From positions 1 through 42,285 of IMG/VR virus record IMGVR_UViG_2778261056_000004: a DNA stretch of 42,285 nt. One strand, written 5' to 3'. The notes under the pieces are model-generated. The model had not been told where the DNA came from. It did no database searches and saw only the letters and a program-made list of their open reading frames with translations. Every line of letters starts with the position of its first letter. Position 1 is the first letter of the stretch. Positions 1-26,692 of this stretch are shown here, piece after piece. The position numbers were made by a program, and so were the translations under genes. Origin of the DNA: a virus (lineage: Duplodnaviria > Heunggongvirae > Uroviricota > Caudoviricetes).

Positions 1-321
1 CTACATTACAGGCGATTTATCGTCTTTAACTTGGTTAAGTGTATGTGTAAGAACGCCGTGTACCGTTACGTCATTCAGAGCTTCCCCTTCTATCGCTTCA
101 CCATCTTCAGTGATTAACGCCTTTCCTCTGAGCTTAGCAAACTGCGTCCGCCCGCCAATGAGGATCAGGAGAGTCTGTCCCTGCACTAAACGGGTAACTG
201 GCTCGATCAGTGCGAACCCGGATGACGTTTCCAGAATGCGGGTATCGATACCTACGCCGCAGATAAGCTCCGGGGTCATCCTCTGAGACACGTAATCAGC
301 AGCTGGAGATGGAAAGCCCAT
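1..321 (-). CDS. UmuD'-like (P1 HumD-like) S24-fold protein, 106 aa, encoded already in the processed form
   Basis: The protein begins M-GFPSPAADYV, which is the N-terminus of self-cleaved E. coli UmuD' (cleavage C24/G25). The rest aligns loosely to the UmuD beta core but is shorter, and the SGDSM nucleophile motif reads SSGFA. Its start overlaps the stop of the upstream ORF by 1 nt (TGATG). Its stop codon lies at the window edge. Confidence 0.6.
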   Translation of the reverse strand: MGFPSPAADYVSQRMTPELICGVGIDTRILETSSGFALIEPVTRLVQGQTLLILIGGRTQFAKLRGKALITEDGEAIEGEALNDVTVHGVLTHTLNQVKDDKSPVM

Positions 322-560
322 CAGTGAACCCTCCCCATGTTGCGCAGGATCCAGTAGTGATTGTCGGTTCCGTCAGTTGTCTTGTCGGTGAAGTCGGGCT
401 GGTAGCGCTCTATCCATTCGTTGGCGTCGGTCCGGCTGAAATGCCAGTGGACCTTTGCCAGCTCGCGGATAAAGTCTTCTGTGCGTAAGCACCGGTAGCC
501 CTTGGGGTTTAGCTGTATTGCGGCCACAAATGCGGCGTGAATGTCGGAACGGCGGGGCAT
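321..560 (-). CDS. hypothetical 79-aa protein, first gene of the SOS-box operon
   Basis: ATG at 560 follows AAGGAG with an 8-nt spacer. The track ORF starts 9 nt earlier at a GTG. It is translationally coupled to the UmuD'-like gene. I recognise no motif. Confidence 0.5.
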   Translation of the reverse strand: MPRRSDIHAAFVAAIQLNPKGYRCLRTEDFIRELAKVHWHFSRTDANEWIERYQPDFTDKTTDGTDNHYWILRNMGRVH

Positions 561-577
561 GATCTGCACTCCTTTAT

Positions 578-2486
578 GTCGCGGTAGGGATACCCGTTAC
601 CGGATACCCCCCGCACGGATCCCGGCGTGCGCGATTTACGCACCGGGCTCCTGCCTCGGGTGTCTGGCGGTGAACCGCTCCACAGGCCATGGATGAAGAA
701 CCCGAACCCTTGGTAGCCATGCGGCTGCCAGTTTGTTTGCTTTCGTCCAGGTCGTATCATCCTTCTGGCTCCTGCGCCTGAGCGCCCGGCGCCAGAGGTT
801 TGTTACGTGTGTCCTGAACTTCTGCATGGTGGGGAAGTTGCCCGGTACCGAGTGATAGTTCAGGTATCCCTGAACCACTCTCCTGAGCCATTTTCCCTGT
901 TCGGGGATTGAGTAATGCCAGCGCCTTCGCAGACCGTCTTTGATGGCTTTCAGAGTTGCCGTCATCCGATCCCGGCAGGTCTTTCGTATCAGCATGAACC
1001 TGCCGTTGCGATCTTTCCCGCTGATGTGCGTGAACCCGAGGAAGTTGAACGTTTCTGGTTTGCCTTTTCCCCTGATGGCACGGTTTTCGGCAGCGAAGCG
1101 GCCGAACTCCATCAGACGGGTTTTCTCCGGGTGAACCGTGAGTCCGAACTCCCTCAGTCTGCGCTGCATGGCTATACGGAAGCGCCGGGCATCGTATCGT
1201 TTGTCGAACCCGATGACGATGTCATCGGCGTATCTGACCATTACCACATTGCCTGTGGCATAGCGACGTCGCCACTGATGCGCCCACAGATCGAAGACGT
1301 AGTGGAGGTATATGTTTGCCAGCAGCGGTGAGATGACCGCACCCTGTGGGGTGCCTTCCTCCGTTGCTCGCCATTGACCCTCCTCCGACGTCCCGGCTGT
1401 GAGCCACTTACGTATGAGCCTGATTACCCTCCGGTCGCCGATCCGATGCTCTGTGAACCTGATCAGCCATTCGTGGCTCACCCTGTCGAAGAACTGACTG
1501 ATGTCGGCATCCAGTACCCAGTTTACGTTAGTGCGTACCAGCCCTGTGGCCAGTGCGTCCAGTGCATCGTGCTGGCTTCGCCCGGGTCTGAACCCGTATG
1601 AGAACCCCATAAAGTCGTTTTCATAGACTGCGTTCAGGATTTTCACCAGCGCATACTGGACGATCTTGTCCTCCAGCGAGGCGATGCCGAGCGGGCGTTG
1701 TTTTCCATCCGCTTTTGGGATGTAGTGACGCCTGCCGGGCTGCGCCCTGTAGCTGCCCTGATGTAGCCTCCGGTGCAGATCTGTTATGTTGTTCTTCATG
1801 TTTCCGGCGTAGTCCATCCACCTGATGCCATCCACTCCGGCGGCCGCTTTCCTGCTCAGGGAGAGGAATGCGGCTTCCAGTGCTTCGACTGTCAGCAGGT
1901 GGAACAATGCTGTAAACCGTTCTTTCTTCCGCTGCTTCGCAGCTTCCCGCACGCGTGACAGCCTCTGTGACATGCTTTCCCGGCTCTGTGTCCGGCGCAT
2001 GTGTGGCTGTTCCGCGTTCCCCTTGGCCCCGCTCCTTCGCTCCACTGACTCCGCTCCTTTCGGGTTGTTCGCCTGCTTCGCCGCTACTATGAGCGAGTCC
2101 GACTTCTCCTCTCCGTACATCACCGGCTATGACTCCTCGTCTTCCCGGTGCGGGCCATCTCCGACACTGGCAGATGGTCAGAGGGGAGATCTCCCGGTTC
2201 CCGCGTAGAGATCGTATTGACATGCCAGGGTCTCAGACCCCGCCGGGTCCATGTGGCACTCGCAGTATCGCACCCTATGATGTTGCCTTCCGTTAACAGT
2301 ACAACGTCGGCACCCGGTAATTTAATATACATTTCGTGGCTCAATGGCTGGCCTGTCAACACCCCTGTCAACGCTTCGCCCCATACCTCGCGGTATGCAA
2401 CGCATGACTCGGGGACCTTGTGGATTGCTGGTCCTTCAATGGTCGGGGACTTTCACCCCTTGATCTCTACCGGTCTCCCGGCGCAC
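578..2486 (-). mobile_element. complete group II intron, about 1.9 kb
   Basis: The minus strand starts GUGCGCCGGGAGACCGG at 2486. A domain V-like hairpin (GAGCCCGGUGCG...CGCACGCCGGGAUC at 618-650) has the AGC triad and an AC bulge. A domain VI helix has a bulged A 7 nt before a terminal GAC at 578. An intact RT/maturase ORF sits inside. Confidence 0.85.
636..2123 (-). CDS. group II intron-encoded reverse transcriptase/maturase (IEP), no recognisable HNH endonuclease domain
   Basis: RT blocks are present, including GVDG, RPLGIASLEDKIVQ, SYGFRPGRSQHDA, QGAVISPLLANIYL and the YADD catalytic box. The maturase/X region carries FLGF. The C-terminus ends shortly after RVLHPWP and has no Cys/His cluster. 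Confidence 0.9.
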   Translation of the reverse strand: MMYGEEKSDSLIVAAKQANNPKGAESVERRSGAKGNAEQPHMRRTQSRESMSQRLSRVREAAKQRKKERFTALFHLLTVEALEAAFLSLSRKAAAGVDGIRWMDYAGNMKNNITDLHRRLHQGSYRAQPGRRHYIPKADGKQRPLGIASLEDKIVQYALVKILNAVYENDFMGFSYGFRPGRSQHDALDALATGLVRTNVNWVLDADISQFFDRVSHEWLIRFTEHRIGDRRVIRLIRKWLTAGTSEEGQWRATEEGTPQGAVISPLLANIYLHYVFDLWAHQWRRRYATGNVVMVRYADDIVIGFDKRYDARRFRIAMQRRLREFGLTVHPEKTRLMEFGRFAAENRAIRGKGKPETFNFLGFTHISGKDRNGRFMLIRKTCRDRMTATLKAIKDGLRRRWHYSIPEQGKWLRRVVQGYLNYHSVPGNFPTMQKFRTHVTNLWRRALRRRSQKDDTTWTKANKLAAAWLPRVRVLHPWPVERFTARHPRQEPGA

Positions 2487-2505
2487 ACTGTTTTTATATA
2501 CAGTA
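2487..2505 (-). promoter_or_regulatory. LexA (SOS) box overlapping a candidate promoter
   Basis: The minus strand reads TACTGTATATAAAAACAGT, which fits CTG-N10-CAG with an AT-rich core. TTGATC lies 17 nt upstream of the TACTGT hexamer. The site is directly upstream of the operon at 1-560 once the intron is removed. Confidence 0.7.
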
Positions 2506-2562
2506 GTTTTAAAGGCGGTGCAGATCAATGAGGTGACGCCTATCAATTCGCGCCGCTGGAGG

Positions 2563-4926: not shown

Positions 4927-4942
4927 TGTATTTCTCCAGCAT

Positions 4943-25639: not shown

Positions 25640-26692
25640 TTATTCCCCTGCCAACGCCCGTATTTCCCCCAACGTCTGATTAAACCTTTCCTCTTCGAGT
25701 TCAACGCCAATAGCCTGGCGGCCAAGTTCCAGCGCGACTTTCACGGTCGAACCGGACCCCATAAAGAAATCAGCCACCACATCACCAGGCTTACTGCTGG
25801 CGTTGATGATCTGCCGCAACATGTCAGCGGGTTTTTCGCATGGGTGTTTACCTGGATAAAACTGAACGGGTTTATGTGTCCAGACGTCGGTATAAGGAAC
25901 GGATACGGAAACAGAGAAATGTCGCCGAAGTGATTTGTACTCTTCGAGCAGCTCTGAATACTTGCGATTCAACGAATGCCACATAGCCACCAGCTGGTGG
26001 TGTGGTGTTGCCAGTTCGCCGTTCTGGTTCTTTTCGTTGGCTACCTGCGTGAAAAGGGACTGAAGCTTCCGGTAGTCTGATTCATTCGGTAATTGCCACT
26101 GGCTACCGCTGAACCAGTGAGACACCATGTTCTTCTTTCCAGTCGCATCGGCTATTTGTTTTGAGGATATGCCAAGCGCTTCACGTGCATCCCGGAAATA
26201 AGAAATTAGGGGAGTCATTACATGCTGCTTCAGCTCGCTTCCCTTCTCAGCGTACCCATCGCTCTTTGGTTTATACGGCCCTTGGTAATGCTCAGCGAAA
26301 AGGATGCGCTCTGTTGCAGGGAAGTAAGAACGCAGGCTCTCTTTATTACAGCCATTCCAGCGGCCCGACGGTTTAGCCCAGATGATATGGTTCAGGACGT
26401 TGAACCGCTCACGCATCATGATCTCAATGTCTGCTGCCAGACGGTGACCGGAGAAAAGATAAAGACTGCCGGCAGGTTTAAGCACTCGCCAGAATTGTGC
26501 GAGGCACATATCAAGCCAGCGAAGATAATCCTCATCCCCTTTCCACTGATTGTCCCAGCCGTTGGGTTTCACTTTGAAGTACGGCGGATCCGTGACTATC
26601 AGGTCAATGGAGTTATCAGGGAGAGTGGCGATGTATTGCAGGCTATCAGCGTTGACTAACTCAACACTGTTTATATTTACAGTATTTTTCAT
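25640..26692 (-). CDS. orphan DNA methyltransferase (N6A/N4C, beta-class), 350 aa
   Basis: DPPY (IVTDPPYF) lies near the N-terminus and the AdoMet motif FFMGSGST near the C-terminus. No nuclease gene is adjacent. Confidence 0.8.
   Translation of the reverse strand: MKNTVNINSVELVNADSLQYIATLPDNSIDLIVTDPPYFKVKPNGWDNQWKGDEDYLRWLDMCLAQFWRVLKPAGSLYLFSGHRLAADIEIMMRERFNVLNHIIWAKPSGRWNGCNKESLRSYFPATERILFAEHYQGPYKPKSDGYAEKGSELKQHVMTPLISYFRDAREALGISSKQIADATGKKNMVSHWFSGSQWQLPNESDYRKLQSLFTQVANEKNQNGELATPHHQLVAMWHSLNRKYSELLEEYKSLRRHFSVSVSVPYTDVWTHKPVQFYPGKHPCEKPADMLRQIINASSKPGDVVADFFMGSGSTVKVALELGRQAIGVELEEERFNQTLGEIRALAGE

Follow-up and report, generated by a model that had tools for sequence, protein, structure and literature searches.

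How does a complete group II intron come to lie exactly between a LexA-binding (SOS) box and the ribosome-binding site (RBS) of the gene behind it, and is this adjacency more than a coincidence? The question is raised by a 42,285-nt stretch of DNA from a Caudoviricetes virus (IMG/VR record IMGVR_UViG_2778261056_000004, positions 1 to 42,285), hereafter called the window, for which a first-pass annotation of the sequence had proposed such an arrangement. Here we confirm the position of this intron base for base on the minus strand (578..2486, 1909 nt), identify it as a copy of the known element Kl.pn.I5, also called Se.ma.I1, and report the analysis of the sites occupied by its relatives in bacterial, plasmid, and viral genomes. 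The results indicate that an intact Kl.pn.I5 copy has very probably retrohomed into the LexA operator of a prophage, and that the LexA box serves as the homing site of the whole lineage.

The window intron aligns with the interval NC_009649:119263-121172 of plasmid pKPN3 at 99.84% identity across 1909/1910 nt. This interval was named Kl.pn.I5-1 in the supplement of Leclercq and Cordaux 2012 (PMC3522654), and Kl.pn.I5 has been equated with Se.ma.I1 in a review (PMC6764390). The window intron is the same element as Kl.pn.I5 / Se.ma.I1 (S.ma.I1), the Klebsiella/Serratia plasmid intron of the bacterial group II intron database.

Target sites of the Kl.pn.I5 lineage

In the window, the intron is placed between the LexA box TACTGTATATAAAAACAGT (2487..2505, minus strand) and AUAAAGGAG-N7-AUG. 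Read on the minus strand, GUGCGCCGGGAG begins at 2486, ..CCUACCGCGAC finishes at 578, and AUAAAGGAGUGCAGAUCAUG follows; the 3' flank directly after the intron is ATAAAGGAGTGCAGATCATG, with AAGGAG at 574..569 and ATG at 560..558. As RNA, the intron extends from GUGCGCC at 2486 to ..CCGCGAC at 578, and its ends agree with the GUGYG...AY boundary pattern (GUGCG 2486..2482, ..GAC 580..578). The last base of the 20-bp operator, A577, lies in the 3' exon, so the occupied operator keeps 19 of its 20 bases, the last A being changed to G. The uninterrupted sequence TACTGTATATAAAAACAGT(A) fits the CTGT-N8-ACAG palindrome and is close to the LexA consensus TACTGTATATATATACAGTA, and the 19-mer is identical to that of the chromosomal umuDC operator of E. 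coli (loci L222/L223). Its assignment as both 5' exon and homing site draws on its sequence, on the logo of occupied sites, and on intron-less sites, as described below.

A scan of one genome per bacterial species, with the first 18 nt of the intron as query, returned 120 loci, and these loci together with 93 viral contigs yielded 93 distinct 40-nt 5' flanks. The motif CTG-N9-CAGN|, where the bar marks the insertion point, stands in exact register in 89 of the 93 flanks of the lineage, versus a chance probability of about 2e-4 per site, so the adjacency to LexA boxes is far beyond chance. Three of the remaining four flanks contain degenerate boxes, which deviate in the left arm (L014, where it reads GTGT, and L158) or in the spacing (L072, with one base fewer between the arms), and the fourth is the 3' end of another intron copy. 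Apart from L014 and L072, which are partial exceptions, all lineage loci in the species scan follow a LexA-type box with a variable centre. Compared with the window intron, the introns at these loci are between about 72% and 100% identical, and their hosts among the Enterobacterales and Burkholderiales include Klebsiella, Kluyvera, Pluralibacter, Burkholderia, Paraburkholderia, Trinickia, Herbaspirillum, and Pelomonas. Five introns of a more distant outgroup begin with the same 18 nt and are inserted at unrelated sequences, and the four copies in deposited phages are each found behind a LexA box, with diverged flanks. The contact between intron and SOS box to which the first-pass annotation had drawn attention is thus not coincidental, as related copies precede unrelated genes but sit at LexA boxes.

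Within the enterobacterial subfamilies, 36 distinct 19-mer boxes are occupied, giving the logo TACTGTATATAWAWACAGT|AT, in which T-16, G-15, C-4, A-3, and G-2 are invariant. No conservation was detected upstream of position -20 (information content <0.6 bit) or downstream of +4. At +1, where the 3' exon begins, 34 of 35 sites have a purine, and G is tolerated there.

Several observations point to repeated, independent insertion at such boxes. Introns that are 99.7-100% identical to one another and have identical loops for exon-binding sites (EBS) occupy more than 35 different boxes, and introns with at least 99.7% identity sit in flanks that are only 65-90% identical. A search of related prophages for the empty site, suggested in the first-pass annotation, succeeded, as intron-less versions of the window locus were found (L218, L220, L219): an intron-less E. 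coli prophage, 90% identical, has the uninterrupted sequence ..TTGATCTGCACTGCCTTTAAAACTACTGTATATAAAAACAGTAAAAGGAGTGCAG.., and the same site is likewise uninterrupted in a second E. coli prophage and in phage Eeyore. The existence of these intron-less homologous sites confirms the intron boundaries.

The genes behind occupied boxes encode a 79-aa protein of PHROG 3893, UmuD (Peptidase_S24), HumD-like proteins, DinI, a 146-aa DinI fusion, a GyrI-like protein, and ImuA; they are mutually unrelated, yet typical of the SOS regulon. Two E. coli strains, ECONIH5 and AR_0128 (L222 and L223, 1431-3450), have the intron in the native chromosomal umuDC operator, where it lies in sense between hlyE and umuD, with the umuD start codon 20 nt downstream. 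In three Burkholderiales loci (L011, L093, L018), sublineages with about 73% identity occupy the LexA box of an imuA cassette of the imuA-imuB-dnaE2 type, two in sense and one in antisense orientation. Among 45 distinct complete sites, 29 introns are in sense orientation, 7 are antisense, 4 lie between divergent genes, and 5 are unclear by crude criteria, which corresponds to a sense-to-antisense ratio of about 4:1. The gene start is located 14-24 nt downstream of sense copies, and 33-51 nt beyond the other side of the box for antisense copies; the reference copy of pKPN3 is antisense to the plasmid umuDC. Both orientations are expected because the target is palindromic and the motif is present on both strands. 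Since antisense copies are not transcribable from the SOS promoter yet are found at boxes, the box is recognised at the DNA level.

At two loci, introns are stacked head to tail behind one LexA box with an exact period of 1909 nt (L147, 6088-11865; L184, 1103-4237). The L147 stack includes at least three copies, the first of which differs from the next two at 6 positions, and thus it is not a simple assembly repeat. The tolerance of G at +1 explains these stacks, and judging from them an occupied box seems to remain a target.

The element is abundant, particularly on plasmids. In PLSDB, 4293 of 72,556 plasmid records match the intron, at 4929 places in total, 3778 of these records being from Klebsiella, and matches were also found in 219 of 5426 complete E. 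coli genomes and in four deposited phages. Eleven Kl.pn.I5 copies have been reported in one K. pneumoniae genome (PMC6965571), and a study of a hospital outbreak has described two new Kl.pn.I5 insertions (PMC8269217), which points to an active element. The near-identical copies at many sites and these reported outbreak insertions argue indirectly for retrohoming activity.

A widespread dead variant, represented by L225 (1496-3404, E. coli CUWW06), has its 5' splice site changed from GTGCG to GTTCA and an internal stop in ltrA, and lies antisense to a plasmid-type umuD; the many database matches that cover positions 6-1909 of the query belong to this variant as well. Seven fragments that are 99-100% identical to the enterobacterial intron and have LexA-box flanks (L023, L033, L044, L055, L058, L064, L070) come from assemblies labelled Nocardiopsis, Leucobacter, Brevibacterium, Arthrobacter, Streptomyces, Actinomadura, and Prevotella. 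Their contigs are mostly very small (0.7-3 kb; 12 kb for L055), and they most likely represent contaminating enterobacterial DNA. Finally, in the phage records MK448228, ON470622, and ON470608 (L002, L003, L004), the intron-encoded protein (IEP) is annotated as 'retron-type reverse transcriptase' and the intron is unannotated.

Structure of the intron and its complementarity to the operator

The ribozyme of the window intron is of the D1D4-6 type. The 5' part of the ribozyme, domains I to IV (2228..2453, minus strand), matches the Rfam model RF02005 (group-II-D1D4-6) over model positions 1-225 of 225, with 186.6 bits and an E value of 7.5e-55, the gathering score being 49. Domain V (DV; 618..650, minus strand) has an AGC triad, a 2-nt AC bulge, and an AAAUC pentaloop, and domain VI (DVI; 580..615, minus strand) has a two-nucleotide UA bulge and a bulged A585, 8 nt from the 3' end of the intron, as the candidate branch point. 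The DV and DVI pairings are supported by covariation: RNAalifold applied to the last 98 nt of 11 relatives gave 32 pairs overall, 11 of them with compensatory changes, and DV and DVI account for 10 of these among their 28 pairs, five in DVI and five in DV (31/53, 32/52, 33/51, 37/45, and 38/44). The G-A mismatch noted by the first-pass annotation in the lower helix of DV is real; it corresponds to positions 3/31, where G.U is usual, and is invariant in 11/11 aligned relatives.

The IEP is an LtrA-type reverse transcriptase (RT)/maturase of 495 aa with a YADD motif (636..2123, minus strand). Its sole Pfam match is RVT_1 (E 4.6e-47), and it scores 375.9 bits against the NCBIfam equivalog of group II RT/maturases, TIGR04416, for which the cut-off is 300. 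In agreement with the first-pass annotation, no HNH or other endonuclease domain was found after domain X by Pfam or NCBIfam, and the protein continues for about 45 aa beyond the stretch that TIGR04416 covers. Its distance to the solved RTs of IIA, IIB, and IIC introns is similar (E 1e-36 to 1e-43), and these do not discriminate the class. The window IEP differs from that of pKPN3 by one residue, R to C, at about residue 383 (..RKTCRDR..). The UAA stop (638..636) lies inside the DV terminal loop, and the last four codons, E-P-G-A, are also within DV. This overlap of reading frame and catalytic core, which the first-pass annotation had described for the window copy, is common to all 11 compared relatives. 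The other enterobacterial subfamily (about 92% identical) has a UGA stop at the same place in the DV loop, some outgroup introns have a UAG stop just ahead of DV, and in the Burkholderia subfamily the open reading frame (ORF) crosses DV and ends at a UAA within the DVI loop.

Comparison with the outgroup introns identified the loop that pairs with the operator. The loops homologous to window positions 2304..2291 are complementary to the last 5-6 nt of the differing 5' exons in L046, L056, L089, L091, and L095, and because these loops covary with their exons, we assign this loop as EBS1. In the window, the loop reads GUUGUACUGUUAAC, with the core U-ACUGUU at 2295..2301 (minus strand), and its ACUGUU pairs with AACAGU of the 5' exon, the intron-binding site IBS1. 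The loop sequence UACUGUU repeats, as RNA, the left half-site of the box, TACTGT(AT), and in other sublineages the loop (G/C)UACUGUAU repeats the left half-site TACTGTAT in full; EBS1 is therefore the complement of the right half-site. The U located 5' of EBS1 may pair with the A at +1: it fits the A or G found there in 34 of 35 sites, and no covariation was seen at this position (a candidate EBS3) in the outgroups.

An AU-rich internal loop, AAAUGUAUAUUAAAUUA (2318..2334, minus strand), is the probable EBS2, as its homologues in L046, L095, and L091 are complementary to exon positions -7..-14. In the window, UAUAU of this loop can pair with ATATA at -13..-9, and sublineages whose boxes contain ..TATAAA.. 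carry UUUAU or UUAU in the EBS2-type loop. Within the box, conservation is higher at positions -12 to -9, left of the centre, than at the mirrored positions (-8, -6), and this asymmetry fits a constraint imposed by the intron.

The putative promoter and the genes behind it

The hexamer TTGATC (2523..2528, minus strand) is a putative -35 element, followed after 17 nt by TACTGT (2505..2500) as the presumed -10 element; the left arm of the box is thus probably the -10 element itself. The layout TTGATC-17-TACTGT is also found at E. coli umuDC and at most prophage copies, and 69 of 98 distinct flanks contain a -35-like hexamer at a distance of 16-18 nt. With the left arm as -10 element, the exon in the 5' untranslated region would be only about 6-8 nt long, essentially IBS1 alone, and splicing would have to proceed from this short 5' exon.

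Two genes follow the intron on the minus strand. The first (321..560), with the RBS AAGGAG at 574..569, encodes a 79-aa protein of PHROG 3893 (unknown function), homologues of which follow the same box, with or without intron, in many prophages. The second (1..321) encodes a UmuD/HumD-like protein of 106 aa (PHROG 3469 'UmuD-like', E 4.8e-45). Such cargo and the layout of the putative promoter would fit a DNA-damage gene, although the promoter scan makes no call there. A consensus promoter scan found no outward-facing promoter within the intron, and because of this the expression of both genes would depend on splicing. As 19 of the 20 operator bases are kept, LexA control should persist at the occupied operator, and the intron with its RT would consequently be SOS-inducible.

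These features suggest the following scenario. An endonuclease-less D1D4-6 intron has very probably entered the LexA operator of the prophage operon encoding the PHROG 3893 protein and the UmuD/HumD-like protein, inserting after the T of the right arm (..ACAGT|A). Recognition would rely at least partly on base pairing, of EBS1 with the right half-site and of the AU-rich EBS2 loop with the AT-rich centre, and the palindromic nature of the target would allow entry at either end of the box. For an intron without endonuclease domain, we infer mobility into single-stranded DNA at replication forks, which has been described for other introns of this kind. After a sense insertion, as in the window, the operator is intact apart from its twentieth base, and the intron would lie directly behind the start of transcription predicted within the box. 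The intron and RT would then be made only upon LexA cleavage, and through splicing the genes behind it would regain their short leader. An antisense insertion would split the -35 from the -10 element, and the gene should be silenced.

A second near-consensus LexA box, TACTGTAAATATAAACAGTG, is present in the window at 26665-26684 (minus strand), within codons 3-9 of a DNA methyltransferase-like ORF (25640-26692, minus strand). This box is intron-free, and the same 19-mer is occupied by introns in L179, L188, and L212; it is potentially a free homing site within a coding region.

Alternative explanations and implications

The distribution of the intron could in principle reflect a single insertion into an ancestral umuD-type promoter, with later copies inherited or recombined as a module. 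Many copies in viral contigs do share one box and a similar promoter (GATC..AAAAC TACTGTATATAAAAACAGT), the 19-mer being present in 24 flanks, but such common ancestry or coincidence is already contradicted and deserves practically no credence: the 36 distinct boxes show no conservation outside the target itself, the downstream genes are unrelated, near-identical introns sit in diverged flanks with intron-less homologues, both orientations occur, and only a few E. coli strains have the intron at their native umuDC operator. It is very unlikely, too, that insertion takes place at any short IBS1 (ACAGT), and that only copies behind LexA promoters were expressed, spread, and sampled. An IBS1 of only 5-7 nt, the weak EBS2 pairing, and the excess of sense copies are what such survivorship would predict; yet antisense copies also stand at boxes in exact register, as do dead copies, in which the 5' splice site is mutated and an internal stop is present, and no full-length copy of the lineage was seen without the TG..CAG frame among the 93 distinct flanks. 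That the intron is retained for the benefit of the host, by delaying or throttling translesion genes (umuDC, imuA, humD) after SOS induction, appears unlikely as well, even if the occupied operators mostly belong to translesion or RecA-modulating genes and a 1.9-kb structured leader that needs splicing would add delay. Antisense and dead copies behave as plain insertions, and the patchy occupation among close relatives is as expected of a selfish element, but a beneficial effect is compatible with homing to LexA boxes and does not compete with it.

A further question is whether the ribonucleoprotein reads the DNA hairpin of the box in single-stranded DNA, as in class C introns, rather than its sequence. 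The first-pass annotation had correctly described the 5' exon as palindromic and likened it to targets of introns that recognise stem-loops. The target is indeed an inverted repeat with fixed arms and varying centres, and the intron, having no endonuclease domain, probably uses single-stranded DNA. Both class C introns inserted at terminators and IIC-attC introns resemble the window lineage in lacking an endonuclease domain and in using a generic, repeated, palindromic regulatory target that spares coding sequences. However, class C introns insert just downstream of a stable stem-loop with a 3-4-nt IBS1 outside it, and have a reduced domain I without EBS2, whereas the window intron has a D1D4-6 ribozyme with an EBS2-homologous internal loop, and its box forms weak hairpins (-2.6 to -4.3 kcal/mol), two of four being indistinguishable from shuffled sequence. 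Moreover, the insertion point and IBS1 are located in the 3' arm, so a hairpin would hide IBS1; the EBS1 loop covaries with the exon in outgroups; and the asymmetric conservation of -12 to -9 fits pairing rather than a loop. The proposed likeness is therefore weak, structure-directed targeting is distinctly improbable, and class C-like hairpin recognition was rejected as the main mechanism.

Some results weigh against homing of a Kl.pn.I5 lineage to LexA boxes as we describe it. The site sample is biased to prophages and to one prophage promoter family, in which 24 flanks share one box. In a neighbour-joining tree of IEPs, the introns at LexA boxes are not cleanly monophyletic, and L046 and L089, whose targets are different, are placed close to the Burkholderiales group; a single origin of these introns is for this reason not claimed. 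The register of EBS2 is ambiguous, several registers being possible that each provide only 4-5 A-U pairs. By analogy with other group II introns, the TG that is invariant in the left arm is probably read by the IEP. Transcription from the LexA-controlled promoter is putative, and so is splicing from a 5' exon of about 6-8 nt. The consensus promoter scan left TTGATC-17-TACTGT below threshold, and since the scanner does not call this promoter, our statements on it rest on the comparison with umuDC. Finally, the Rfam model RF00029 (Intron_gpII, domain V/VI) gave no match to the intron even at E<=10; we attribute the miss to the pentaloop and the G.A pair common to all compared relatives, and it does not outweigh the covariation support.

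Beyond homing itself, we tentatively consider, at somewhat less than even confidence, that the lineage is a LexA-operator specialist whose expression and target exposure are both gated by the SOS response. Cleavage of LexA would derepress the intron and its RT and at the same time free all remaining operators of the cell, on incoming plasmids and in prophages, so that homing sites would be unmasked while single-stranded DNA is abundant.

Among group II introns, specialists for insertion sequences, for intrinsic terminators, and for attC sites are known. RmInt1 of Sinorhizobium meliloti, a IIB-like intron, is similar to the window intron in lacking an endonuclease domain and in its EBS1/EBS2 arrangement, and it is expected to prime from single-stranded DNA at replication forks; its target is the insertion sequence ISRm2011-2, whereas that of the window intron is a transcription-factor operator. 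Integron integrases with LexA boxes and the tum antirepressor of coliphage 186 place mobility or induction under LexA, as proposed here for the window intron, but they carry a LexA box of their own, whereas the intron borrows a host operator that is also its DNA target. The first copy of the element, S.ma.I1, was reportedly described by Kulaeva et al. in Mutat Res in 1998, in the promoter region of a mucAB-like operon of R471a. A consensus homing site was later inferred from three copies by Leclercq and Cordaux 2012, who called the sites intergenic with conserved IBS, and neither 'LexA' nor 'SOS' occurs in that paper (PMC3522654). In our full-text literature searches, no paper turned up that connects group II introns with LexA operators, two possibly relevant subscription papers being outside their reach. 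The element itself is thus known, whereas homing specific for an operator, in both Gamma- and Betaproteobacteria, is apparently undescribed and ranks beside the specialisation on terminators and attC sites.

For annotation, it is of practical importance that the protein is called a 'retron-type RT' and that the Rfam model for domains V and VI misses this class of introns. If the proposed homing is true, a transcription-factor operator would represent a new kind of safe harbour for group II introns, one that also provides a stress-inducible promoter. Under the more tentative SOS-gated reading, the element would be a damage-triggered retroelement spreading among SOS operators, and the expression of LexA-controlled error-prone polymerases (umuDC, imuA-imuB-dnaE2), found on resistance plasmids, would be rewired. 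Sense copies would make the expression of the genes behind them dependent on splicing, and antisense copies should cut the gene off from its promoter. Being usually located beside umuDC-type genes, the intron may alter SOS mutagenesis in clinically important strains.

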